Assembly: GCF_044647545.1 (NCBI RefSeq)
Contig: NZ_CP172818.1
Length of the DNA: 64,000 nucleotides
From: Escherichia coli
Lineage (GTDB): Bacteria > Pseudomonadota > Gammaproteobacteria > Enterobacterales > Enterobacteriaceae
Reading direction: 5' to 3' (one strand)
Part shown: in pieces, positions 31,175 to 48,706 of the stretch
Layout: every line of letters starts with the position of its first letter
Numbering within the stretch: position 1 is the stretch's first letter
The notes under the pieces: model-generated
Seen by the model: the letters and a program-made list of their open reading frames with translations, nothing else
The model's database searches: none
Told to the model about the DNA's origin: nothing
Made by a program: the position numbers and the translations under genes

Positions 31175-31479
31175 TAATAGCCTCCCTGTTTTTTTAGTAT
31201 TATCGATGATATCAGTGGACTATTTTTCGATGCTGCTCATAAATATCGAATTACAGTGATATACACATGTCTTGCCTCCCTGCAAAGAAGAGACTAACAT
31301 CCGAATTGCTTAGGTTCGAACGCTGGCCTCAGGTTGATAGAAATATCGCCTGGGGCTTTTGTCCATCTGGTACCTCGCGAATGCTTAATGCCAGACAGCC
31401 TCAAGCACCCAACGCCATTCTATACCTGTTAATTCTTCCAACGACGTTCACGTTTAAAATCAGGAATGCTGCTCGCAAA

Positions 31480-32286: not shown

Positions 32287-32328
32287 TTGCCTGATGCGAC
32301 GCTCACGCGTCTTATTAGGCCTACAAGA
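32287..32328. repeat. REP (repetitive extragenic palindromic) element between cysI and cysH
   Basis: gcctgatgcgacgctcacgcgtcttattaggcctacaag matches the REP pattern. Confidence 0.7.
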
Positions 32329-36610: not shown

Positions 36611-37882
36611 ATGGAAGACGACTGCGACATTATTATTATTGGTGCCGGTATTGCAGGCACCGCTTGCGCGTTACGCTGCGCGCGAGCGGGTTTATCCGTT
36701 TTGTTACTGGAACGCGCTGAAATCCCCGGCAGCAAAAATCTTTCCGGCGGGCGTTTATATACCCAGGCGCTCGCGGAACTCCTCCCACAATTTCATCTGA
36801 CCGCGCCTCTTGAACGACGCATCACTCACGAAAGCCTTTCCCTGTTAACGCCGGATGGCGCAACGACGTTTTCCAGCTTACAGCCCGGCGGTGAATCCTG
36901 GAGTGTATTACGTGCACGGTTCGATCCGTGGCTGGTTGCCGAAGCCGAAAAAGAAGGTGTCGAATGCATCCCCGGTGCGACGGTGGATGCGTTGTATGAA
37001 GAAAACGGCAGGGTGTGTGGTGTCATTTGTGGTGACGATATTCTCCGCGCCTGTTATGTGGTGCTGGCAGAAGGTGCCAACAGCGTCCTGGCTGAACGTC
37101 ACGGGTTAGTGACTCGTCCTGCTGGCGAAGCGATGGCGTTGGGGATCAAAGAAGTGCTGTCGCTGGAAACATCCGCTATTGAAGAACGTTTTCATCTGGA
37201 GAATAACGAAGGCGCAGCGTTGCTGTTCAGCGGCGGGATCTGTGATGACTTACCCGGCGGCGCATTTCTTTATACTAATCAACAAACGCTCTCGTTAGGG
37301 ATTGTTTGCCCGCTCTCTTCCCTTACGCAAAGTCGTGTTCCGGCAAGCGAGCTGCTGGCTCGCTTTAAAACGCATCCGGCAGTGCGCCCGCTTATCAAAA
37401 ACACGGAATCACTGGAGTATGGTGCGCATCTGGTGCCAGAAGGTGGCTTGCACAGTATGCCGGTGCAATACGCCGGTAACGGCTGGCTGCTGCTGGGCGA
37501 TGCGTTGCGCAGTTGCGTCAATACCGGAATTTCCGTGCGCGGCATGGATATGGCGCTAACTGGCGCGCAGGCGGCGGCACAAACGCTGATAAGCGCCTGC
37601 CAGCACCGCGAGCCGCAAAATCTGTTTGCGCTTTATCATCACAACGTAGAGCGCAGCCTGCTGTGGGATGTTCTACAACGTTATCAGCATGTTCCGGCGC
37701 TTTTGCAACGCCCTGGCTGGTATCGGGCGTGGCCTGCGTTAATGCAGGATATTTCCCGCGATTTATGGGATCAGGGTGATAAACCTGTTCCACCGCTGCG
37801 CCAGTTATTCTGGCGTCATTTACGTCGTCACGGCCTGTGGCATCTGGCGGGCGATGTTATCAGGAGTCTGCGATGTCTGTAG
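36611..37882 (+). CDS. ygcN: FAD-dependent oxidoreductase, FixC/ETF-quinone oxidoreductase-like
   Basis: Start taken at MEDDCDIIIIGAGIAG (dinucleotide-binding motif); 423 aa. Confidence 0.85.
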   Translation: MEDDCDIIIIGAGIAGTACALRCARAGLSVLLLERAEIPGSKNLSGGRLYTQALAELLPQFHLTAPLERRITHESLSLLTPDGATTFSSLQPGGESWSVLRARFDPWLVAEAEKEGVECIPGATVDALYEENGRVCGVICGDDILRACYVVLAEGANSVLAERHGLVTRPAGEAMALGIKEVLSLETSAIEERFHLENNEGAALLFSGGICDDLPGGAFLYTNQQTLSLGIVCPLSSLTQSRVPASELLARFKTHPAVRPLIKNTESLEYGAHLVPEGGLHSMPVQYAGNGWLLLGDALRSCVNTGISVRGMDMALTGAQAAAQTLISACQHREPQNLFALYHHNVERSLLWDVLQRYQHVPALLQRPGWYRAWPALMQDISRDLWDQGDKPVPPLRQLFWRHLRRHGLWHLAGDVIRSLRCL

Positions 37883-38133
37883 CCCGTAATCTCTGGCGCG
37901 TTGCCGATGCGCCGCACATTGTTCCGGCTGACTCCGTTGAGCGTCAGACGGTACAATGGTTGATTAACGCTTGTCCGGCTGGTCTTTTTTCGCTCACACC
38001 AGAAGGTGACTTACGTATTGACTATCGCAGTTGCCTGGAGTGTGGCACCTGCCGTTTGCTGTGCGACGAAAAAACACTACAACAGTGGCGCTATCCACCT
38101 TCCGGATTCGGCATCACCTACCGTTTTGGATAA
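37873..38133 (+). CDS. ygcO: Ferredoxin-like protein, FixX-like
   Basis: Start taken at MSVARNLWRV (86 aa); overlaps the ygcN 3' end. Confidence 0.8.
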   Translation: MSVARNLWRVADAPHIVPADSVERQTVQWLINACPAGLFSLTPEGDLRIDYRSCLECGTCRLLCDEKTLQQWRYPPSGFGITYRFG

Positions 38134-38149
38134 ATAATAAGGATAATTT

Positions 38150-38725
38150 ATGCCCCTCTTACACCTGCTCCGCCAGAATCCGGTGATTGCTGCCGTTAAA
38201 GATAATGCCAGCCTGCAACTGGCAATCGACTCTGAATGCCAGTTTATTTCCGTGTTGTACGGCAATATCTGCACCATCAGTCATATCGTCAAAAAGATTA
38301 AAAGTGCCGGGAAATATGCCTTTATTCATGTCGATTTGCTGGAAGGCGCATCGAACAAAGAAGTGGTGATTCAGTTTCTGAAACTGGTGACCGAGGCGGA
38401 CGGCATTATCAGCACGAAAGCATCGATGCTGAAAGCAGCAAGAGCGGAAGGTTTTTTCTGTATTCATCGCCTGTTTATTGTTGATTCGATTTCGTTTCAC
38501 AACATTGATAAGCAAGTTGCGCAATCGAATCCGGATTGTATTGAGATCCTGCCTGGCTGTATGCCCAAAGTGCTGGGCTGGGTGACGGAGAAAATCCGCC
38601 AACCGCTGATTGCTGGCGGGCTGGTGTGCGATGAAGAAGATGCGCGTAATGCGATTAACGCAGGTGTCGTGGCGCTTTCCACCACGAATACCGGGGTCTG
38701 GACGCTAGCGAAAAAATTGCTTTGA
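38150..38725 (+). CDS. ygcP: GlpP-family (glycerol-3-phosphate responsive) antiterminator homologue
   Basis: 191-aa ORF starting MPLLHLLRQNPVIAAVKDN. Confidence 0.8.
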   Translation: MPLLHLLRQNPVIAAVKDNASLQLAIDSECQFISVLYGNICTISHIVKKIKSAGKYAFIHVDLLEGASNKEVVIQFLKLVTEADGIISTKASMLKAARAEGFFCIHRLFIVDSISFHNIDKQVAQSNPDCIEILPGCMPKVLGWVTEKIRQPLIAGGLVCDEEDARNAINAGVVALSTTNTGVWTLAKKLL

Positions 38726-38760
38726 CGGGATAATCGTAACGAATTGAATTTGTGTGATTT

Positions 38761-38830
38761 GTAGGCTGTACGCCACATCGGACATTCAGCGCCTGATGCG
38801 ACGCTTGACGCGTCTTATCAGGCCTACAAG
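38761..38830. repeat. Pair of REP elements in inverted orientation (BIME-like) between the convergent genes ygcP and ygcQ
   Basis: gtaggctgtacgccacatcggacattcagcgcctgatgcgacgcttgacgcgtcttatcaggcctacaag. Confidence 0.7.
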
Positions 38831-38871
38831 TCCCCAGGCCAGAACCGTAGGCAGGATCATCCAGCAACACG

Positions 38872-39732
38872 TTATTGGCAATCTGCGTGAATGTTTGTCA
38901 CCATTGCCTCCAGCACCACTTTCCAGTCATCAACCACGCCAACATCTGCCTGTGAAAATACCGCTGCGCTGGCGTCATGATTAATCGCCACCACAAACTT
39001 GCTATTGCATACGCCCGCCATTAACGCTGCTGCGCCAGAAGCGCCAACAACAATACACACCTCAGGTGCCAGCAGATGTCCGGAAATACCAATCACTTTT
39101 TCAGCATCAACGCCACCGTTCATCACTCGCGCCCGACTGTAGCCCACTTCGGCTCCCAGCTTTTCTGCCAGCATAGCGATTTCCTGGTTATCTGCCTCTC
39201 CGCCCTGCCCCACCACCAGCACCCGTCTGGCTTCAGCTAATGGGTCGCGGGTAACATTTTTCAGGTTTTCTAGGCTAACCAGCCAGTCGGGAAGCGCGCC
39301 GGGGACAATGTTCAGTTGCTGCATCCCAGAGGGCAACGTGGCGTTTTTATCTGCTCCCGCCTGACGCGCCAGCGAAAGGCATAGCGGGCGTTTGTCTGTT
39401 TGCAGCGTCGCCGTCAACGCATTTCCCCAGTGGGATTTGCGCACGCTTACGGTTGGAATATCTAACGAAGTCACCTGGCAGATGCTTGCACCATGTAAAC
39501 GCCAGGCCAGCCGGGTCGACAGTTCATCGCCAAACGTTCCCGGCGGAAAGAGAACAACGTCCGCAGGCGTTCGCTGCCACTGTTCCACCAACGCATCCAG
39601 CACCTGTTCCGCCACTACGGGCTGAGGTTCAATCTGCCAGTGCGCCAGGGTACAACCGCTGAAATCCTGCGCCGCCAGCCAGCTCGCTATTGCGGCATTC
39701 TCCTGATTTATTGTCACAATTGCGATATTCAT
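38872..39732 (-). CDS. ygcQ: Electron transfer flavoprotein alpha-subunit-like protein
   Basis: Start taken at MNIAIVTINQ (286 aa). Confidence 0.85.
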   Translation of the reverse strand: MNIAIVTINQENAAIASWLAAQDFSGCTLAHWQIEPQPVVAEQVLDALVEQWQRTPADVVLFPPGTFGDELSTRLAWRLHGASICQVTSLDIPTVSVRKSHWGNALTATLQTDKRPLCLSLARQAGADKNATLPSGMQQLNIVPGALPDWLVSLENLKNVTRDPLAEARRVLVVGQGGEADNQEIAMLAEKLGAEVGYSRARVMNGGVDAEKVIGISGHLLAPEVCIVVGASGAAALMAGVCNSKFVVAINHDASAAVFSQADVGVVDDWKVVLEAMVTNIHADCQ

Positions 39733-40508
39733 GGCTGCATCCTTTGGCGTAAATAGTTCTGCCATAGCTTTTGCGCTTTTTCTGCTACCGTTTGCCCATC
39801 AATCAGCGTCGCTCCGCGTCGTTGCTCTGCTCTTGCCAGATGCAGACACTGCATCGCTGGCAATTCGACAGCAACAGTTTTACGGATAATTGCTGCTTTC
39901 CCCGCAGCCATTCGCTGGCGCATTCCCGGTACTGGCAAGGCCACTTCACCACACTGGCGCACGGCAATCACCGCAGGCAAGCGAACCCGGCAACAGCGCA
40001 GCCCGTTTTCAGTACGCTGTTCAAGGGTGATAAACGGCGCGTCGAGAGTAAAACGCTCCACCTGGGTGAAGCAGGGCCAGCCCAGCATTTCCGCCAGCAA
40101 AAATGGCGTTTGCCCATTCTGCCCTTCGCTGCTTTGGCAGCCGGTAATGATCAGATCCAGCGGATTCTGACGCTGCCATTCGGCAATATGGCGAGCGACA
40201 AATTCCGGCGCAAAGCGCAGATCTGCCACCGTCTCCAGCAATACAGCGTCCTCAAACCCAAGAGCCATGAGATAGCGCAGCCAGTGCAACGCCCGTTCAT
40301 CCCCCATGCTCAACGCGGTTAAAGACATCGGCGTACCGTTTTTTCTCTGCGCCAACAGCAGCGCGGCGGCAGCCTGTTCATCAGCACCGAGTAAACTTCG
40401 CAGTAGCGAAACATCTGGTCCAATATTACCCTGAGCCGCCGCCTGCCACTCTTTTTCCGCCAGCATTCCGGCATCCGGTTCGGCTTTAAACGCTAACAGA
40501 ATGTTCAT
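39729..40508 (-). CDS. ygcR: Electron transfer flavoprotein beta-subunit-like protein
   Basis: Start taken at MNILLAFKAEPD (259 aa); overlaps the ygcQ start. Confidence 0.85.
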   Translation of the reverse strand: MNILLAFKAEPDAGMLAEKEWQAAAQGNIGPDVSLLRSLLGADEQAAAALLLAQRKNGTPMSLTALSMGDERALHWLRYLMALGFEDAVLLETVADLRFAPEFVARHIAEWQRQNPLDLIITGCQSSEGQNGQTPFLLAEMLGWPCFTQVERFTLDAPFITLEQRTENGLRCCRVRLPAVIAVRQCGEVALPVPGMRQRMAAGKAAIIRKTVAVELPAMQCLHLARAEQRRGATLIDGQTVAEKAQKLWQNYLRQRMQP

Positions 40509-41823
40509 TCGCACCTCCTACATTTCCCGCCGCCACCAGCGGGAGTGCTTTGGTTTCTGGTGCCCATAGCCAGGTCACAACAAAACCAACCAACAACACT
40601 GCCGCCAGGAGCAATAAGGTGGCTTGCATTCCCCACTGCGCCAGCACCCACGGCAGCAGGCCAGTACTTACCGCCGCCCCCAACCGACTCATGGCGGTGG
40701 CAAAACCGACGCCCAGCGAGCGAATGTCAGTAGGAAAACTTTCCGCAGGCAAAATGCCCACCAGATTACTGACTGCCGAAATGGTGGTGCTGAAGAGAAC
40801 AAAAAGCAGCAGCGTTAATGAACTGCCGGAAGGCAAACAGGCCATCACTACCAGCGTTGCCGCCAGCAGCAAAAAACTTCCCAGCAAAAACTTGCGATGT
40901 GCCAGCAGGTGCGTCAGAACTAATCCCAGCAGCGCGCCCACAATTAACAACGCATTAAGCATCAGGCTGGCGGTCAGCGCATCCTCCAGACCAATAGTCT
41001 GGGCGATGGTCGGCAGCCAGGTATAAATCACAAACCATGGGATTACGAGGCAGACAAAGAAGACGCTGTTAAACGCCGTGCGTCGCCAGTAGCGCGAAGA
41101 AAACAAGGTTTTGATGTGTTTATGGGTCGCCGCTGCCACTTCATCGCCCAGTAAAACATGTGGCCCCAAATAGCGATGCACAATAGCGTGAGCTTCAGCA
41201 AAACGTCCCTGGCGCAGTAGCCAGCGTGGCGATTCCGGCGTGCCCCAACGTAGCAGCGTAATCAGCAAGGCTGGTAACGCCGCTGATGCCAGCAGCCAGC
41301 GCCAGGCCTCCGGGTTTTCGGAAATAAAGTGATGTCCGGCAATACTTGCCAACACATAGCCTACGGTCCACACCACGCTGAATGCGCCCAGTAAAATACC
41401 GCGATGGCGGCGCGGGGAAAATTCAGCCAGCAAGGTGTGACCGACTGAGTAATCGCCTCCCAGACCAATGCCGATCAAAATGCGCAGCCCAATAAGATGC
41501 TCTGGCGTGGTGGCAAAAAATTGCAAGAACGAAGCGAGCGTAATCAGCAAAAAGCTGAAGGTGAAGATTTTTTGCCGACCAATATGGTCGGAGATCCATC
41601 CAAGAACCAGGCTGCCAAGAAACAAACCAAGGAGTGCTGAGCCGCCAATCATTCCCGCCATAAACGGCGTCAGTTGCATGGCTGGAGTAAGCTGAATAAT
41701 GGCGTAACCAATGACGCCGAGGACATAACCGTCGGTCAGGTGCGCACCGAAAGTGAGCGCAGCAATGCGGCAGTGAAAACGGTTAAGTGGTAAATCATCC
41801 ATTCGCACCGGTGAAGTGTTCAT
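40486..41823 (-). CDS. ygcS: MFS sugar-transporter-family protein
   Basis: Start taken at MNTSPVRMDD (445 aa); the ORF track's 475-aa version is a 5' extension. Confidence 0.85.
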   Translation of the reverse strand: MNTSPVRMDDLPLNRFHCRIAALTFGAHLTDGYVLGVIGYAIIQLTPAMQLTPFMAGMIGGSALLGLFLGSLVLGWISDHIGRQKIFTFSFLLITLASFLQFFATTPEHLIGLRILIGIGLGGDYSVGHTLLAEFSPRRHRGILLGAFSVVWTVGYVLASIAGHHFISENPEAWRWLLASAALPALLITLLRWGTPESPRWLLRQGRFAEAHAIVHRYLGPHVLLGDEVAAATHKHIKTLFSSRYWRRTAFNSVFFVCLVIPWFVIYTWLPTIAQTIGLEDALTASLMLNALLIVGALLGLVLTHLLAHRKFLLGSFLLLAATLVVMACLPSGSSLTLLLFVLFSTTISAVSNLVGILPAESFPTDIRSLGVGFATAMSRLGAAVSTGLLPWVLAQWGMQATLLLLAAVLLVGFVVTWLWAPETKALPLVAAGNVGGANEHSVSV

Positions 41824-41916
41824 CTTTACCCCTTCATTGTCCGGTAATAAGAACGGCTTCTCGCCTGAGAAGCCGAAAAGGCAACGCCCCGTCATCGCGG
41901 AACGCTGCCTCACACA

Positions 41917-43371
41917 TTATTTTTCAATCGGATAGATAGTACCCGTATTCATAATGCCGTTAGGATCGAACTGTTTTTTCAGCCCTTCCAGCAACGTCCA
42001 CGCGCTGCCGTGTTCCAGTTTGCTCCAGTGAACGCGATGTTTACCAATACCGTGGTGGTGCACCATCGAACCGCCGAGACGAATGGTTTCTTCGCAGATG
42101 ATTTTGTTGAGCGGATTGTGGTACTTGTCGATTTCCTCTTCCGGCTTACAGTCAACGACGTTGTAGTCGTAGACGAAGTACATGTTGGTACCGTTCTGAT
42201 AGCTATGAGAGGAGTGACCGCCCAGCATGGTGATGTCGTCGGCGTGCGGGAACTCGGTACGAATACGGTTAATAACGCTTTCGTAGATTTCGTGGATGCA
42301 GCTCCAGCAGCCGGACACTTCGGTGGTAAAGCCCATGTTGCCGGTTTTGAGGATCTGCACACGTTCAGCGGCCACTTTATCCGGCCCCCAGTTCAGGTGA
42401 TTAAACCAGGTTTCGATCAGCTTGCTGTCCACGCGCTGGCATTGCGGGTAACGTGCCACGATTTCAGCAATCCCTTCGCCCGTCGCCTTCGCAATGCGAG
42501 GGTTACCTTCAGCCATAAAGATCAGCACGCATTTACCATCGGCAAAATGGGTGAAGTGTTGGGTGCCATCTTCAACGTCATATAAACGAGCGATCGACGG
42601 ACGATACCCTTCCACCATGATTTCACGCAGGATGTTGAAGCCGGTTTTCATATCTTCCAGGATATAGCCGTAGAAGAGGTTGTTTTCCGGGGTGAATTTA
42701 AAGATTTTCACTGTTACTTCAGTGATATAGCACAGTGCACCTTCGTTGCCGATGATGATGTGACGAATGTCCGGGCCAGCCGCGCGGCGTGGCACGTTTT
42801 TAATACGTGTGACGGTACCATCTGCCAGTACCGCTTCCAGACCAACGACCATATCTTCGATTGCGCCGTAGAGTGTGGAGAACTGCCCGATACTGCGGGT
42901 TGCTACCAGGCCGCCCATCTGCGCCAGCGGTTTTGATTGCGGTGAATGCCCCGTGGTGTAACCTTTTTCACGCAACGCGTTTTCCAGCACCTCCAGCGGA
43001 ACGCCACATTGCGCCGTGGCCTGCATATTCTCAATATCAATATTAATGATTTGATTCATGGCAGAGCCGTCGAGCACCACCGAGTTTTCCACAACGGTTT
43101 CCAGCCCGCCTTCAGTGGCGGAAGCACCGGTACGCGGCACACCGTTAATTTTGTGCGCATTCATAAAATTCAGCACACGGGACACTTGTTCTGTGGAACC
43201 GAGTTTTACGACCGCTGCCGGAATCGGCAAAGTATAAATGCCATGAATATCCGGAAATTTGCGAAAACGGTCAATACTGTTTTTCTTTAATACTGTTTCA
43301 TCGGTAATTACGCGATCTGCACCAACAATTTCCTTTAGCTGGTCGACAATCGCTGCGCGAGATAAAGACAT
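41917..43371 (-). CDS. ygcU: FAD-linked oxidase (alkyl-DHAP synthase / D-lactate dehydrogenase-like)
   Basis: 484-aa ORF. Confidence 0.85.
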   Translation of the reverse strand: MSLSRAAIVDQLKEIVGADRVITDETVLKKNSIDRFRKFPDIHGIYTLPIPAAVVKLGSTEQVSRVLNFMNAHKINGVPRTGASATEGGLETVVENSVVLDGSAMNQIINIDIENMQATAQCGVPLEVLENALREKGYTTGHSPQSKPLAQMGGLVATRSIGQFSTLYGAIEDMVVGLEAVLADGTVTRIKNVPRRAAGPDIRHIIIGNEGALCYITEVTVKIFKFTPENNLFYGYILEDMKTGFNILREIMVEGYRPSIARLYDVEDGTQHFTHFADGKCVLIFMAEGNPRIAKATGEGIAEIVARYPQCQRVDSKLIETWFNHLNWGPDKVAAERVQILKTGNMGFTTEVSGCWSCIHEIYESVINRIRTEFPHADDITMLGGHSSHSYQNGTNMYFVYDYNVVDCKPEEEIDKYHNPLNKIICEETIRLGGSMVHHHGIGKHRVHWSKLEHGSAWTLLEGLKKQFDPNGIMNTGTIYPIEK

Positions 43372-43440
43372 AGTAATTCCTTCCTGATAATAAAAATGGA
43401 ATAATCATTAATAAGAGAAAACAGAAACCACCGTTATGGA

Positions 43441-44226
43441 TTAGCGCACTAAATAACCGCCATCGACCACTAATAAATGCCCGTTAACATAATTTGAAGC
43501 CGGACTTGCGAGGAAGACGGCTGCGCCCATTAAATCCTGTGTATCGCCCCAACGGTTTGCCGGAATATGATCAAGAACGCGCTGATTAGTTTCAGGATTA
43601 CTGCGTGTCGCCAGCGTAATATCTGTTGCATAATAACCTGGAGCAATACCATTTACCTGAATATTATATTGACCTAGTTCATCACAATAAGCTTTGGTGA
43701 ATCCAGCAAGAGCATGTTTAGTTGCAGAATATGCAGGTGACCATTGTCCACCTAAGTAAGAGAACAATGAACAGATATTAATAATTTTACCGCTTTTCTG
43801 CGGGATCATAATTTTTGCCGCTTCGTAGCTTAACTCGAATGCGGCGGTCAGGTTCACATCAATCATCGGGTCCCAGTCGGCACGACCGAAGTCCAGCACC
43901 TTATTCAGCTTACAAATACCGGCATTGTTAACCAGAATATCTACGGTACCGAAGCGCTCACAGCAGGCAGCGATAATCTTCTGCGGCGCGCCTTCTGCGG
44001 TGATATCCACCTGCATAAAATCAACTTCGACACCCTGTTTTTCAATCATTTCCTTTGTTTCGCCGTTATCTTTGACGAAGCTAGGGATAAAGACATTTGC
44101 GCCAGCTTTGGCCAACGCCATGGCAAATGCCTGGCCTAAACCGCTATTCCCGCCGGTAACAATTGCTGTTTTACCTTTCAGGGAGAAAAAATCCATTGAG
44201 AACGCATTGAGAGATTCGATTGACAT
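43441..44226 (-). CDS. ygcW: Short-chain dehydrogenase/reductase (SDR)
   Basis: Start taken at MSIESLNAF (261 aa); TGGNSGLG cofactor motif. Confidence 0.85.
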   Translation of the reverse strand: MSIESLNAFSMDFFSLKGKTAIVTGGNSGLGQAFAMALAKAGANVFIPSFVKDNGETKEMIEKQGVEVDFMQVDITAEGAPQKIIAACCERFGTVDILVNNAGICKLNKVLDFGRADWDPMIDVNLTAAFELSYEAAKIMIPQKSGKIINICSLFSYLGGQWSPAYSATKHALAGFTKAYCDELGQYNIQVNGIAPGYYATDITLATRSNPETNQRVLDHIPANRWGDTQDLMGAAVFLASPASNYVNGHLLVVDGGYLVR

Positions 44227-44250
44227 AGTTAGCTCCAATTTCCGTAAGGC

Positions 44251-44297
44251 AAAAAAAAAGAAAGGTAACTTCCCCCGCGAGAGGGAAGTTACCTTTC
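44251..44297 (-). terminator. Intrinsic-terminator-like hairpin (14-bp stem gaaaggtaacttcc, 9-nt loop) followed on the minus strand by U9, lying in the ygcW 5' leader about 25 nt upstream of the start codon; candidate attenuator
   Basis: Near-perfect inverted repeat 44260–44297 with the a9 run 44251–44259 on the plus strand (U9 on the minus strand). Confidence 0.6.
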
Positions 44298-44544
44298 TCA
44301 TTATCTCTGGTAACTGGAGATAATTTTTAGCATAAGGGCATAAGCGCTAATGTGATCGTAATCACAGTGTGATATTCGTATTATCAAATAATTTTAAAAA
44401 GCAGAAGCGTGACTACTCTCACACAACACCACTGCTTTCCATGTTATTTCTTATTGCAATTACTAGAGACCTGAGAAAAGTAATCCACCTGAAAGGGCGG
44501 CTTACTTTTCTCTTTTTTTTGTCTATTACAAATGGGAATACGAT

Positions 44545-45822
44545 ATGCAACACAACTCATATCGCCGTTGGATAACCCTCGCGATAATTAGTTTTAGCGG
44601 CGGCGTTAGTTTCGACCTGGCTTATTTACGTTATATTTATCAAATTCCCATGGCGAAATTTATGGGATTCAGCAATACCGAGATAGGTTTAATAATGAGT
44701 ACCTTTGGTATTGCAGCTATTATTCTTTATGCGCCCAGTGGCGTTATTGCCGATAAATTCTCACATCGCAAAATGATTACTTCCGCGATGATCATTACCG
44801 GATTACTGGGTCTGTTAATGGCAACTTATCCACCGCTGTGGGTAATGCTCTGTATTCAGGTCGCCTTTGCGATAACGACGATTTTAATGCTGTGGTCGGT
44901 GTCGATTAAAGCCGCATCGTTGCTGGGCGATCATAGCGAGCAAGGGAAAATTATGGGCTGGATGGAAGGGCTGCGCGGCGTCGGTGTAATGTCGCTGGCG
45001 GTGTTTACCATGTGGGTCTTTTCTCGCTTTGCACCGGATGACAGCGCCAGCCTGAAAACGGTCATTATCATCTATAGTGTGGTTTACATCTTGTTGGGGA
45101 TTCTGTGCTGGTTTTTTGTTAGCGATAACAACAACCTGCGCAGTGCCAATAACGAAGAAAAACAATCATTCCAGCTTAGCGACATCCTGGCTGTTTTGCG
45201 CATCAGCACCACCTGGTATTGCAGCATGGTGATTTTTGGCGTCTTCACCATCTACGCCATTCTGAGTTACTCCACCAACTATCTCACCGAAATGTACGGC
45301 ATGTCGCTGGTGGCGGCGAGCTACATGGGGATTGTGATCAACAAAATATTCCGCGCGCTGTGTGGTCCACTTGGCGGCATTATCACCACCTACAGTAAAG
45401 TGAAATCCCCTACCCGCGTAATTCAAATCCTTTCCATCATCGGCCTGCTGGCACTGACTGCCCTGCTTGTTACCAACTCTAACCCGCAATCGGTCGCTAT
45501 GGGGATTGGCCTGATTTTACTACTGGGATTCACCTGCTACGCCTCACGTGGACTGTACTGGGCCTGCCCCGGCGAAGCGAGAACACCGTCTTACATTATG
45601 GGCACCACGGTAGGTATTTGTTCGGTGATTGGATTCCTGCCGGATGTCTTCGTTTACCCGATTATCGGCCACTGGCAAGACACCCTGCCCGCTGCAGAAG
45701 CCTACCGCAACATGTGGCTAATGGGCATGGCCGCGCTTGCCATGGTGATCATCTTTACCTTTTTGCTGTTCCAAAAAATTCGTACTGCTGATAGCGCCCC
45801 CGCAATGGCTAGCAGCAAGTAA
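44545..45822 (+). CDS. yqcE: MFS transporter
   Basis: 425-aa hydrophobic ORF. Confidence 0.85.
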   Translation: MQHNSYRRWITLAIISFSGGVSFDLAYLRYIYQIPMAKFMGFSNTEIGLIMSTFGIAAIILYAPSGVIADKFSHRKMITSAMIITGLLGLLMATYPPLWVMLCIQVAFAITTILMLWSVSIKAASLLGDHSEQGKIMGWMEGLRGVGVMSLAVFTMWVFSRFAPDDSASLKTVIIIYSVVYILLGILCWFFVSDNNNLRSANNEEKQSFQLSDILAVLRISTTWYCSMVIFGVFTIYAILSYSTNYLTEMYGMSLVAASYMGIVINKIFRALCGPLGGIITTYSKVKSPTRVIQILSIIGLLALTALLVTNSNPQSVAMGIGLILLLGFTCYASRGLYWACPGEARTPSYIMGTTVGICSVIGFLPDVFVYPIIGHWQDTLPAAEAYRNMWLMGMAALAMVIIFTFLLFQKIRTADSAPAMASSK

Positions 45823-45848
45823 GCCAGGAAAATTACAGGAGAAAAATC

Positions 45849-47327
45849 ATGTCGAAAAAATACATCATAGGGATTGATGGCGGAAGTCAGAGCACAAAAG
45901 TGGTGATGTACGATCTGGAAGGTAATGTGGTTTGCGAAGGCAAAGGCTTATTGCAGCCGATGCACACGCCAGATGCCGATACCGCAGAACATCCTGACGA
46001 CGATTTATGGGCATCATTATGTTTTGCCGGTCACGATTTGATGAGTCAGTTTGCCGGAAATAAAGAAGATATTGTCGGTATTGGTCTGGGATCCATCCGT
46101 TGCTGCCGTGCGTTATTGAAAGCCGATGGCACGCCAGCTGCGCCGTTGATTAGCTGGCAGGATGCACGCGTTACACGCCCTTACGAACATACGAATCCTG
46201 ACGTGGCATATGTCACCTCTTTTTCAGGTTATCTGACGCATCGCTTAACCGGCGAGTTTAAAGACAATATCGCCAACTATTTTGGTCAGTGGCCGGTGGA
46301 TTATAAGACCTGGGCATGGAGTGAAGATGCCGCAGTCATGGAGAAGTTTAATATCCCCCGTCATATGCTGTTTGATGTGCAAATGCCGGGCACTGTTCTT
46401 GGGCATATCACTCCTCAAGCCGCGCTGGCGACACATTTCCCAGCTGGGCTGCCGGTTGTTTGTACCACCAGTGATAAACCGGTAGAAGCTCTGGGAGCCG
46501 GATTACTGGATGATGAAACGGCGGTGATTTCTCTTGGCACCTACATCGCGCTGATGATGAACGGTAAAGCACTGCCGAAAGATCCGGTGGCGTACTGGCC
46601 GATTATGTCTTCTATTCCGCAAACATTGCTGTATGAAGGTTACGGTATTCGCAAAGGCATGTGGACGGTGAGCTGGCTGCGCGACATGTTAGGCGAGTCG
46701 TTAATTCAGGATGCCAAAGCACAGGATCTTTCACCGGAAGATTTGCTCAACAAAAAAGCGTCTTGTGTGCCGCCTGGCTGTAATGGTCTGATGACGGTGC
46801 TGGACTGGCTGACCAATCCGTGGGAACCATACAAACGCGGGATTATGATCGGCTTTGATTCCAGCATGGATTACGCATGGATATATCGTTCGATACTGGA
46901 AAGCGTGGCGCTGACGCTGAAGAACAATTACGACAATATGTGTAATGAAATGAATCACTTTGCAAAGCATGTGATCATTACTGGCGGCGGTTCGAACAGC
47001 GATCTGTTTATGCAGATTTTTGCCGACGTGTTCAACCTTCCGGCACGCCGTAACGCCATTAATGGTTGTGCAAGTCTGGGGGCAGCGATCAATACGGCGG
47101 TAGGTCTGGGGCTATACCCGGATTACGCAACGGCTGTCGACAAAATGGTTCGCGTGAAAGATATCTTTATGCCTGTTGAGAGCAACGCCAAACGCTACGA
47201 CGCGATGAATAAAGGCATTTTCAAAGACCTAACCAAGCACACTGATGTGATCCTGAAAAAATCGTATGAAGTGATGCATGGTGAGCTGGGGAATGAAGAT
47301 TCGATCCAGAGCTGGTCGAATGCGTAA
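45849..47327 (+). CDS. ygcE: FGGY-family carbohydrate kinase
   Basis: 492-aa ORF starting MSKKYIIGIDGGSQSTKVV. Confidence 0.85.
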   Translation: MSKKYIIGIDGGSQSTKVVMYDLEGNVVCEGKGLLQPMHTPDADTAEHPDDDLWASLCFAGHDLMSQFAGNKEDIVGIGLGSIRCCRALLKADGTPAAPLISWQDARVTRPYEHTNPDVAYVTSFSGYLTHRLTGEFKDNIANYFGQWPVDYKTWAWSEDAAVMEKFNIPRHMLFDVQMPGTVLGHITPQAALATHFPAGLPVVCTTSDKPVEALGAGLLDDETAVISLGTYIALMMNGKALPKDPVAYWPIMSSIPQTLLYEGYGIRKGMWTVSWLRDMLGESLIQDAKAQDLSPEDLLNKKASCVPPGCNGLMTVLDWLTNPWEPYKRGIMIGFDSSMDYAWIYRSILESVALTLKNNYDNMCNEMNHFAKHVIITGGGSNSDLFMQIFADVFNLPARRNAINGCASLGAAINTAVGLGLYPDYATAVDKMVRVKDIFMPVESNAKRYDAMNKGIFKDLTKHTDVILKKSYEVMHGELGNEDSIQSWSNA

Positions 47328-47359: not shown

Positions 47360-47374
47360 TGAACATACCTGAAT

Positions 47375-47511
47375 GGTTATCCCCGCTGACGCGGGGAACA
47401 TAAGTTCGACAACTTAAAAAATGATAACAAGTCCGGTTTATCCCCGCTGATGCAGGGAACATAATAAAAACTTTAACTAGTTCGTTTATCCCTGTTGTTA
47501 CAAGGAATATT
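47375..47511 (-). CRISPR. Degenerate CRISPR remnant: three decayed type I-E-like repeats
   Basis: ggttatccccgctgacgcggggaacat; cggtttatccccgctgatgcagggaacat; cgtttatccctgttgttacaaggaatat. Confidence 0.75.
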
Positions 47512-47964: not shown

Positions 47965-48367
47965 TGGTTCATCCCCGCTGGCGCGGGGAACACGTCTTTT
48001 TGACCGGCCGGTAAATCGTCTGCCTGCGGTTTATCCCCGCTGGCGCGGGGAACACAAACCATTCTCGCAATCAAGGACTATTCCTAGACGGTTTATCCCC
48101 GCTGGCGCGGGGAACACGGTCGCAGGGAATACAAAGCCGTGCATCCTGCTCGGTTTATCCCCGCTGGCGCGGGGAACACTGGCTCTGCAACAGCAGCACT
48201 ATGACCCCGTCGGTTTATCCCCGCTGGCGCGGGGAACACGAAAAGCTTATGATCGTTAATGCCGCAAACACCGGTTTATCCCCGCTGGCGCGGGGAACAC
48301 ATTACACCTATGTGCGAGCGCCCGGTTTTTGCCGCTAGCGGTTTATCCCCGCTGGCGCGGGGAACAC
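47965..48367 (-). CRISPR. Orphan CRISPR array, 7 repeats and 6 spacers, repeat variant ending GAACAC (plus strand CGGTTTATCCCCGCTGGCGCGGGGAACAC)
   Basis: Repeat starts at about 47965, 48027, 48089, 48151, 48211, 48272, 48339; the first repeat is a variant (ggttcatcc). Confidence 0.95.
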
Positions 48368-48706
48368 TCTAAACATAACCTATTATTAATTAATGATTTT
48401 TTAAGCCAGTCACAATCTACCAACTTTATAGTATCACACAAACAACACATCCATTATGTTAAAGAGCACTTAATCCATTGATTAAAAAGGTAAATATTTA
48501 AAATAACTCTATACAAACTAAAATCTACCAAACTTTACCGCAATAATTTTCACTCCAGCGAAAAATTAACGCCACAGAATTTGTAGAGAATGATAATGAT
48601 TAGTTCAGGATGGGCAAGATGGATGAGTTTTCAGAGGCGACAAACAATATAAATGAGTAGAAGTCTTTACAGGTTCCACCCATTTATAACGCTTATAAAT
48701 GTTTAA
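48368..48706 (-). promoter_or_regulatory. AT-rich leader of the second CRISPR array
   Basis: AT-rich segment adjoining the most conserved repeat; begins tctaaa like the array 1 leader (tctaaaag). Confidence 0.6.

Follow-up and report, generated by a model that had tools for sequence, protein, structure and literature searches.

Genes and extent of the locus

Positions 36611-47327 of a 64,000-nt stretch of Escherichia coli DNA (contig NZ_CP172818.1, assembly GCF_044647545.1; this whole stretch is called the window, and positions refer to it) hold the ygcN-ygcE cluster. Its ten genes are all intact and, judged by gene spacing, fall into three transcription units, two of which are headed by the same leader RNA. 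The first base is that of the ygcN ATG and the last ends the ygcE stop codon. An identical locus is annotated in RefSeq with the same ten genes that a preliminary description had named from the sequence, namely ygcN, ygcO and ygcP on the plus strand, ygcQ, ygcR, ygcS, ygcU and ygcW on the minus strand, and yqcE and ygcE on the plus strand (Table 1). In the first unit ygcN and ygcO overlap by 10 nt and are followed by ygcP after a gap of 16 nt. The ygcW-ygcU-ygcS-ygcR-ygcQ unit has gaps of 69 and 21 nt and then overlaps of 23 and 4 nt, and yqcE and ygcE are separated by 26 nt.

Table 1. Features of the ygc locus, with positions in the window. ETF, electron-transfer flavoprotein; FAD, flavin adenine dinucleotide; MFS, major facilitator superfamily; SDR, short-chain dehydrogenase/reductase; VAO, vanillyl-alcohol oxidase; DHAP, dihydroxyacetone phosphate; REP, repetitive extragenic palindrome; BIME, bacterial interspersed mosaic element; CRISPR, clustered regularly interspaced short palindromic repeats
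Feature	Position	Strand	Description
ygcN	36611..37882	+	FixC-like FAD-dependent oxidoreductase, candidate ETF:quinone oxidoreductase (RefSeq, NCBIfam)
ygcO	37873..38133	+	FixX-like ferredoxin (RefSeq, NCBIfam)
ygcP	38150..38725	+	GlpP-family (PF04309) antiterminator protein
REP/BIME element	~38760-38860		Between convergent ygcP and ygcQ, inside the cluster; sequence read directly
ygcQ	38872..39732	-	Divergent ETF alpha subunit (Pfam)
ygcR	39729..40508	-	Divergent ETF beta subunit
ygcS	40486..41895	-	MFS transporter; related to aromatic-acid, sugar-porter, organic-cation (OCT) and NiaP families
ygcU	41917..43371	-	FAD enzyme of the VAO/GlcD superfamily, alkyl-DHAP-synthase-like subgroup; 484 aa
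ygcW	43441..44226	-	SDR oxidoreductase, KduD/gluconate-5-dehydrogenase-like
ygcW leader RNA	44244..44317	-	5' AGUUACC box, GAGA-rich spacer, 19-bp terminator hairpin, U9
CRP site TGTGATTACGATCACA	44351..44366		Perfect palindrome between the two leaders
yqcE leader RNA	44456..44526	+	Second copy: AAUUACU box, GAGA spacer, terminator, U8
yqcE	44545..45822	+	MFS transporter, anion:cation-symporter/organophosphate-antiporter type
ygcE	45849..47327	+	FGGY-family kinase, specificity unassigned
Degenerate CRISPR repeats (three)	47373-47510		Directly after the ygcE terminator
Intact type I-E CRISPR array	47965-48377		7 repeats

The cluster matched several complete E. coli chromosomes at 100% identity by megablast, and at least 80% of it was present in 5060 of 5426 complete E. 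coli genomes (~93%). GC content (0.43-0.57) is ordinary for E. coli, and the position between queD and queE, with queD as left neighbour 77 bp upstream of ygcN, is kept throughout the Enterobacteriaceae. The cluster had been called an island; a recent genomic island is excluded by GC content, prevalence and conserved position, and the locus is therefore an old near-core block. The leader or the cluster was missing from ~363 of the 5426 genomes, and shortened forms of YgcU (366-415 aa), which share 99% identity with the complete protein, make up sequence clusters (P0009, P0029 and P0049) with hundreds of members, so that the pathway appears to be decaying in some lineages.

CRISPR arrays on one side and REP elements on the other had been given as boundaries. 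The former stood: on the right, three degenerate repeats are followed, after ~450 nt of very AT-rich sequence, by the intact array, and the decayed repeats look like the remnant of an older one. The REP element proved to be internal, between ygcP and ygcQ. Its exact core GCCTGATGCGACGCT occurs twice in the window, at 32289-32303 and 38791-38805, the second with an inverted partner at 38809-38823 in a BIME-like arrangement. Outside the cluster, the Rfam model of the sok antitoxin RNA (RF01794) was matched over its full length at 31254-31410 on the minus strand (102.6 bits, threshold 59), which indicates a putative hok/sok-type toxin-antitoxin locus between the cas3 and cysH regions.

A leader RNA shared by both divergent operons

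Both divergent operons, ygcWUSRQ and yqcE-ygcE, begin with the same leader RNA of ~74 nt. A terminator scan placed a 19-bp hairpin with nine uridines just upstream of the ygcW start codon, and a terminator hairpin with U-tract, as in GlpP-type targets, was found at 44299-44250 (minus strand) and ~44478-44520 (plus strand). The 5' arm of the terminator can pair instead with an upstream AGUUAC box: the box, AGUUACY, is exactly complementary to RGUAACU within that arm.

Covariance searches covered the window and 84 further loci (1.56 Mb in total) and returned 117 matches; within the window the only matches were the ygcW leader (69.2 bits) and the yqcE leader (66.9 bits). The first gene downstream encoded YgcW in 44 cases, YqcE in 41, YgcU in 15, YgcE in 7, a transporter of the betaine/choline/carnitine (BCCT) family in 5, and an operon with MttB or with an OpuC-type ATP-binding cassette (ABC) transporter in one each; one match had no gene downstream on the same strand. 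The hairpin at the equivalent site is conserved in sequence as well as shape across Enterobacterales, Bacilli, Clostridia, Negativicutes and Vibrionaceae, and a pattern scan of metagenome loci found similar leader contexts in 19 of 20. The remaining pattern (L099), amid the housekeeping genes for MreB, AlaS and UDG, was treated as a chance match or an unrelated terminator. Control of ygcNOP by the same RNA was rejected, with no covariance match upstream of ygcN. In Clostridia and one gammaproteobacterial contig, a second leader copy stands inside the operon between the ygcE and ygcU orthologues (L065, 9850-9917; L067, 9831-9918; L071, 8715-8803; L064, 1742-1808), which suggests two successive antitermination checkpoints.

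In the alignment of these phylogenetically related loci, 94% of cells in the terminator helix were paired, with compensatory change at 10 of 15 pairs. The antiterminator helix, which lies outside the covariance model, was paired in 85% of cells, compared with 23-47% when the partner was slid by one to three columns. Its pair 4-40 alternates between G-C (59) and A-U (36), and its pair 10-33 between U-A (67) and C-G (26). In the terminator, too, the base in column 33 changes together with its partner (A-U 86, G-C 27); covariation of one column with both partners is the signature of two mutually exclusive helices. The yqcE leader itself carries a G-to-A change in the box that is matched by C-to-U in the stem; further compensatory variants, which are rarer, occur in a Pluralibacter-like metagenome-assembled genome (MAG) and in Saccharopolyspora leaders.

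Folding of the leader elements (74 and 76 nt) gave minimum free energies of -34.2 and -22.3 kcal/mol, with z-scores of -7.4 for ygcW and -3.8 for yqcE; extended to the start codon, the leaders reached -37.9 and -23.6 kcal/mol. The E. coli antiterminator hairpins are weak (-6.4 and -1.4 kcal/mol) beside these strong terminators, so a protein should be needed for the antiterminator to win, and YgcP is the obvious candidate. It matched Listeria GlpP (PDB 3kts) at E=4.6e-28, and also 1vkf, and thus has the G3P_antiterm fold. YgcP orthologues in Firmicutes are 55-62% identical; the best 120 homologues listed were all of the ygc type, each with PF04309, a family also carried by the YgcP orthologues in two of the compared loci (L002 and L004). 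Among well-flanked loci, 47 had both a ygcP gene and the leader RNA and 6 had neither, with 4 discordant, one of them outside the coverage of the RNA search. The pairing spans Enterobacterales, Clostridia, Bacilli and Actinomycetes, and clusters with GntR-, LysR- or sigma-54-type regulators were without the leader.

The leader occurs in 5063 E. coli genomes, with a median of two sites per genome, none of which carries a RefSeq feature annotation. The Rfam 15 gathering scan of the window returned the sok match alone, with nothing at the leaders, and an E-value scan of 44200-44560 gave a top score of 23.8 bits against a threshold of 100, hence no credible family.

Between the two leaders there is a single CRP site. 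Measured from the first base of the ygcW leader element, its centre lies 41.5 nt upstream, and the interval contains an extended -10-like motif (TGnTA), where a promoter is predicted. CRP has been reported to bind this site in vitro with a Kd of 1.7 nM (PMC12871828), the site is listed among CRP binding targets in enterotoxigenic E. coli H10407 (PMC4287617), and yqcE-ygcE is listed as CRP-activated (PMC8085971).

The data show or strongly support that the ygc genes form one regulon, with the CRP site, default termination in both leaders, an alternative helix that would prevent termination and a tight association between the RNA and YgcP. Of the self-contained catabolic or redox island first proposed, the single module is therefore upheld by the shared leader, the one CRP site and the adjacency across phyla, and the word island is not. 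Independent transcription with unrelated functions, which had been named as the refuting outcome, is contradicted by the shared leader RNA, the common CRP site and conserved synteny.

YgcU, an alkyl-DHAP-synthase-like flavoenzyme

YgcU carries the FAD_binding_4 (PF01565) and FAD-oxidase_C (PF02913) domains, and its best match among solved structures was alkyl-DHAP synthase (ADPS; 8.8e-56 in a profile search); glycolate oxidase and the ETF-dependent lactate dehydrogenase LctD ranked lower. In a HMMER alignment to PDB 4bby, R262, Y398 and H438-440 of YgcU fell on ADPS Arg419, Tyr578 and His615-617, the ADPS columns being fixed by the deposited mutant entries 4bc7 (R419H) and 4bca (Y578F). These residues were invariant in 12 YgcU orthologues. 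YgcU thus has the domains and catalytic residues of ADPS (Tyr578, Arg419 and the His615-617 loop), but aligns only to ADPS residues 180-652 and is without the N-terminal part of ~180 residues.

Against the GlcD model TIGR00387, YgcU scored 143.8 bits (cut-off 567.9). It reads HHHG where GlcD-type enzymes read EHG, including the GlcD2 protein encoded in the clusters of anaerobes, with which it shares ~20% identity, and so falls outside the GlcD/LctD type. Conservation is unusually high: the E. coli protein is 65-76% identical to its orthologues in Sporomusa, Clostridia, Halobacillus, Desulfobacula, SAR324 and Saccharopolyspora. Where the preliminary description spoke of oxidases, YgcU is most likely a dehydrogenase passing electrons to its own ETF. 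Two relatives, in a Planctomycetota MAG (L007) and in 'Chryseobacterium sp.' (L030), were 99% and 89% identical to the E. coli protein, the latter also in enterobacterial synteny; both are probably contamination or mis-binning of the source assemblies.

The other enzymes and the transporters

The family assignments given previously hold at superfamily or subfamily level, and every NCBIfam match was below its curated cut-off. YgcN scored 377.9 and 360.4 bits against FixC-type subfamilies (cut-offs 466 and 610), YgcO 80.2 bits against FixX (cut-off 166), YgcQ 60-68 bits against FixB-type models (cut-offs ~530-550) and YgcR 33.7 bits against FixA (cut-off 219). With all curated FixA, FixB, FixC and FixX cut-offs missed, YgcN, YgcO, YgcQ and YgcR are relatives of FixABCX and not equivalogs. 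YgcQ matched ETF_alpha (PF00766, 4e-17), with the FAD-binding domain of an ETF, and ETF (PF01012, 2.9e-6), and YgcQ/YgcR orthologues carry both families.

YgcW came close to the KduD models without reaching them, at 349.9 bits against NF005390 (cut-off 369) and 276 against TIGR01832 (cut-off 338.85); its best PDB matches were KduD and gluconate-5-dehydrogenase (Gno) enzymes. YgcE reached no NCBIfam equivalog cut-off among GlpK, XylB, LsrK, GntK, AraB, FucK and RhaB, scoring 142.6 bits for XylB (cut-off 380) and 140.5 for LsrK (cut-off 528). LsrK and glycerol kinases were its best PDB matches, and FGGY_N and FGGY_C domains are present in orthologues. In Enterobacterales and Photobacterium loci, yqcE always lies directly upstream of ygcE. 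Over-expression of YgcS was reported to raise conversion of nicotinamide to nicotinamide mononucleotide (NMN) (PMC8601175).

Relatives across phyla

The comparison of genome neighbourhoods proposed in the preliminary description was carried out on 85 loci around YgcU orthologues, 80 from genomes and 5 from assemblies, with clustering of their open reading frames (ORFs). Adjacency of YgcW, YgcE, YgcU, YgcR/Q and YgcP was kept across phyla, at least five in number. YgcU was detected in 83 loci, YgcW, its most frequent neighbour, in 79, YgcE in 71, ETF beta and alpha in ~61, with the gene order YgcU-YgcR-YgcQ kept in these, and YgcP in 54. The cross-phylum core is thus YgcW, YgcE and YgcU, usually with the ETF pair; this conserved enzymatic core, like the ADPS-type active site of YgcU, is shown or strongly supported by the data. 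YgcN and YgcO were confined to Enterobacterales (ygcN in 35 of the 85 loci), as was YgcS. In strict anaerobes, a second GlcD-type flavoprotein stands beside the ETF genes in place of YgcN/O and YgcS. In halophilic Bacilli the locus comprises only YgcP, YgcW, YgcE, YgcU and a BCCT transporter and lacks an ETF.

Outside Enterobacterales, 19 loci had flanks of 5 kb or more on both sides, and in 18 of these there were genes for BCCT transporters, OpuC/OsmF-type glycine-betaine/choline ABC transporters or MttB-family methyltransferases. Several of them lie directly behind the same leader RNA and are therefore part of the regulon. YgcS was present in 44 loci and the BCCT, OpuC-type or MttB genes in 27, with none having both, which is suggestive of equivalent roles for YgcS and the quaternary-amine transporters. 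One leader-controlled operon (L091, 6352-12098; also L074 and L097) combines an MttB-family protein and an OpuC-type ABC transporter with a PanB-like hydroxymethyltransferase, whose score of 334.8 bits exceeds its subfamily cut-off. A gene for a corrinoid protein was not noted in the L091 operon, where two neighbouring ORFs are unannotated. For a non-pyrrolysine MttB this partnership is unusual.

A gene resembling formaldehyde-activating enzyme (Fae) was found in Erwinia, Pantoea and SAR324 (L036, 2386-2889, 134.9 bits, above the cut-off of 118; also L041, L050, L051 and L052). In Erwinia and Pantoea it shares an operon with an aldo-keto reductase (AKR), a dehydrogenase like succinate-semialdehyde dehydrogenase (SSADH) and YgcS; in SAR324, a BCCT gene replaces YgcS. 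To our knowledge, tetrahydromethanopterin synthesis is not to be expected in the enterobacteria that carry this gene. Genes for SSADH-type aldehyde dehydrogenases, for AKR or zinc alcohol dehydrogenases (ADH) and for AspA-like (aspartase-like) lyases recur as neighbours; the SSADH-like, AKR and AspA-like genes do so among Pantoea/Erwinia, SAR324, Desulfopila and Alkalihalobacillus, with the lyase in both the Alkalihalobacillus and the Desulfopila loci. A GldA-type glycerol dehydrogenase gene lies downstream of the BCCT gene in one leader-controlled operon, and SurE-like phosphatases occur in two loci.

Proposed pathway

The substrate, described before as not evident from sequence, must still be inferred, but the neighbourhood comparison favours a compound of the glycerol type bearing a quaternary-ammonium head group over an ordinary sugar. 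Our preferred reading, which we consider to have an even chance of being correct, is that one regulon controlled by CRP and YgcP serves the catabolism of a small glycerol-like (vicinal diol) alcohol with a quaternary-ammonium-type head group.

The regulatory part of this reading is largely shown: CRP activates two divergent promoters from its single site, and each leader terminates by default at its strong hairpin and U-tract. Effector-bound YgcP would stabilise the weak hairpin (AGUUACY:RGUAACU, with a GAGA-rich loop), and the antiterminator would sequester the 5' terminator arm and allow read-through into ygcWUSRQ and yqcE-ygcE. By analogy with glycerol-3-phosphate (G3P) for GlpP, the effector would most likely be a phosphorylated pathway intermediate.

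The substrate, X-CH2-CHOH-CH2OH with X the cationic head group, would enter via YgcS and/or YqcE. YgcW, as a nicotinamide adenine dinucleotide (NAD)-dependent SDR, would oxidise the secondary hydroxyl and YgcE would phosphorylate the terminal one, in either order, to give X-CH2-CO-CH2-O-phosphate, a 1-substituted DHAP and the scaffold used by ADPS. YgcU would then release or oxidise the head-group carbon of this intermediate to leave a triose phosphate, and electrons would pass from YgcU through the ETF YgcR/YgcQ and the FixCX-like YgcN/YgcO to the quinone pool. YgcE, YgcW and YgcU would be catabolic counterparts of three enzymes of eukaryotic ether-lipid metabolism, namely alkylglycerol kinase, the SDR alkyl-DHAP reductase and ADPS.

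The match of this kinase, SDR and ADPS-like trio to ether-lipid enzyme types makes a glyceryl ether an attractive substrate. A bolder proposal, to which we give little weight, is that ygc is the first described route for degrading glycerol-linked quaternary-ammonium compounds, the ether-lipid pathway run backwards, under an undescribed cross-phylum class of GlpP-family riboregulator. The leading candidate substrate would be the deacylated betaine-lipid head glyceryl-N,N,N-trimethylhomoserine, with glycerophosphocholine as an alternative candidate. The former is an ether that hydrolases cannot open, and it agrees with neighbours of the ADH, SSADH-like and aspartase-like kinds; the latter agrees with the neighbouring genes for phosphatases, alcohol and aldehyde dehydrogenases and MttB. 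In some lineages, homoserine betaine could be converted by ADH or AKR and the SSADH-like enzyme to aspartate betaine, and by the AspA-like lyase to fumarate and trimethylamine; in anaerobes it would go to MttB-type demethylases.

Several points weigh against the catabolic regulon proposed here. BCCT, OpuC and MttB genes are all absent from the cluster of E. coli, and the top scores were to aromatic-acid symporters for YgcS and anion symporters for YqcE, so that the Firmicute or marine clusters could act on a substrate other than that used in E. coli. The mutual exclusion of YgcS and BCCT-type genes is confounded with phylogeny. Halophilic Bacilli without ETF in the locus imply that YgcU may not need net electron transfer, ADPS itself is redox-neutral, and the sense in which electrons move through YgcRQ and YgcNO is presumed. 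The likeness of YgcU to ADPS was read entirely from sequence alignment; an AlphaFold2 model built with a 12-sequence alignment (mean predicted local distance difference test score 65, predicted template modelling score 0.61) was too poor to inspect. The covariance model was built from 37 aligned copies and holds the terminator only, its seeds having first been found by regular expression, and the covariation counts are not independent events and over-count, as the loci are phylogenetically related. In the literature searched, no ygc gene is tied by experiment to a substrate or phenotype and there is no study of YgcP; what is recorded on ygc genes is CRP binding, higher NMN production as a side effect of YgcS, a test of ygcU with D-serine that was negative, and mentions of YgcR in relation to MazF.

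Alternative readings

The first of two explanations that remain live, though each is improbable in our judgement, is a second system for glycerol or G3P dissimilation, in which YgcE would be a glycerol kinase paralogue, YgcU with the ETF and FixCX-like proteins an alternative G3P dehydrogenase and YgcW a glycerol or dihydroxyacetone dehydrogenase, with YgcP sensing G3P. YgcP is a GlpP homologue and many glycerol kinases are found among the PDB neighbours of YgcE, but YgcE scored 102 bits against the GlpK model (cut-off 590). YgcU resembles a DHAP-binding enzyme and the G3P/DHAP couple suits an ETF- or quinone-linked dehydrogenase, yet YgcU is unrelated to GlpD or GlpA, and glpK, glpD and glpABC are already present in E. 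coli. A GldA-type glycerol dehydrogenase in one leader-controlled operon also agrees with this explanation, whereas plain glycerol leaves the BCCT, OpuC-type and MttB link and the Fae-, SSADH- and AspA-like neighbours unexplained, and the two dedicated transporters are neither GlpF- nor GlpT-like.

The other live explanation, again one we would not expect to be right, is a reductive electron sink like that of cai/fix, in which YgcN/O and YgcR/Q would feed YgcU for the anaerobic reductive cleavage of a head group, such as trimethylamine or an alkoxide, from an alpha-substituted ketone phosphate. No sequence feature fixes the direction of electron flow, and activation by CRP suggests a carbon-source role. 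In favour of the sink, E. coli has three FixABCX-like sets, YgcNOQR among them, and fix is tied to carnitine reduction beside the BCCT protein CaiT. Most non-enteric hosts are strict anaerobes (Sporomusa, Desulfobacula, Clostridia), and their ETF pair is flanked by the second GlcD-type dehydrogenase, a possible electron donor, but aerobic halophilic Bacilli keep the YgcW/E/U core with no ETF gene in the locus.

Less probable still is an ordinary sugar-acid or keto-deoxy-sugar pathway, with YgcW as a KduD/gluconate-5-dehydrogenase paralogue, YqcE as a hexuronate/galactonate-type permease, YgcE as a ketose or aldonate kinase and the quaternary-amine neighbours coincidental. Aldolase, dehydratase and isomerase were found in 0 of 85 loci, the pairing of YgcU with an ETF and a GlpP-type regulator are foreign to known sugar-acid routes, and a coincidence sits poorly with quaternary-amine transporters in 18 of 19 well-flanked non-enteric loci, some with the leader RNA. 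The near-cut-off KduD score of YgcW and its best PDB matches, the match of YqcE to the D-galactonate transporter family, and matches of YgcE to XylB, LsrK and GntK models speak for such a pathway, but no equivalog cut-off was reached.

That the genes are neighbours without common function is very improbable. In its favour are the division into three transcription units on both strands, around a central REP element, and the fact that no operon data from experiments came to light, but mere co-location is contradicted by the same cis-regulatory RNA at the head of both divergent operons, the one CRP site common to them and adjacency conserved across at least five phyla.

Significance

The ygc genes as long-annotated y-genes, every protein family involved and the principle of GlpP antitermination are already known. 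The leader RNA and its alternative helices are described in neither the searched literature nor Rfam, and the searched literature is without the two operons as one YgcP/CRP regulon, the ADPS-type active site of YgcU and the cross-phylum quaternary-amine link. The ygc cluster is among the larger near-core gene blocks of E. coli without assigned function, and holds a third, unexplained set of Fix/ETF paralogues. A single regulon with a defined RNA switch offers an experimental handle on the inducer, by which a long-standing orphan cluster becomes testable, and with choline/betaine-type transporters and MttB demethylases linked to it across phyla, the range of substrates to consider shrinks from any sugar to a short list of obtainable compounds. 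Should the substrate be a quaternary amine of dietary or algal origin, the pathway would bear on gut trimethylamine production and on the marine turnover of betaine lipids and osmolytes. Beside BglG, the leader RNA would give E. coli a second family of protein-dependent antitermination, and it could serve synthetic biology as a compact part.

Comparison with known systems

The G3P-dependent GlpP system of Bacillus subtilis, which acts at leader terminators of glpD, glpFK and glpTQ, uses a protein of the same family (PF04309). In the 5' untranslated region (UTR) of glpD, on which GlpP is proven to act, GGTC is followed by a GAGA-rich spacer and then by GACC, which belongs to the 5' terminator arm (PMC9604022, Table S4). 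The layout is the same as in ygc, with a promoter, a 5' box complementary to the 5' terminator arm, a GAGA-rich spacer and a hairpin, a comparison made by layout on the published 5' UTR only. The RNA differs, AGUUACY...GAGAAARGUAACUUCC in ygc against GGUCC...GAGAGACCAC in glpD. The ygc system further differs in that it controls non-glp genes, is found in Proteobacteria, Clostridia, Negativicutes, Bacilli and Actinomycetes, and has no Rfam match.

In ether-lipid metabolism, alkylglycerol kinase, alkyl-DHAP reductase and ADPS act on 1-substituted glycerol, G3P and DHAP. YgcU is closest to ADPS (AGPS) among solved structures, with Arg419, Tyr578 and the HHH loop kept. Unlike ADPS it is without the ~180 N-terminal residues, is soluble and bacterial, and is paired with an ETF although ADPS is redox-neutral; the direction of the ygc pathway is presumably catabolic, and no lipid-handling genes lie nearby.

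With fixABCX/caiTABCDE of E. coli, for carnitine, and the ydiQRST paralogue, the cluster shares a four-protein set like FixA, FixB, FixC and FixX, which in ygc relatives is likewise linked to BCCT-type transport. The scores, however, are far below the Fix cut-offs, the partner is a VAO-family flavoprotein instead of an acyl-CoA dehydrogenase, no CoA-transferase or CoA-ligase genes are present, and YgcN/O are restricted to Enterobacterales. In LctBCD of Acetobacterium woodii (PDB 7qh2), as in ygc, a VAO/GlcD-superfamily dehydrogenase is encoded beside an EtfB/EtfA pair, and in ygc a complex is presumed. The EHG motif of the LctBCD type is found in the GlcD2 protein of the anaerobe ygc clusters, whereas YgcU has active-site residues of the ADPS type and not of the 2-hydroxyacid type. 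The erythritol pathway of Brucella differs from ygc in its GlpD-like dehydrogenase, where YgcU is VAO/ADPS-like, in its isomerases, which are absent from ygc, and in its regulator and transporters, but its FGGY kinase EryA and FAD polyol-phosphate dehydrogenase EryB follow the same logic, a kinase step and then flavin oxidation feeding respiration.

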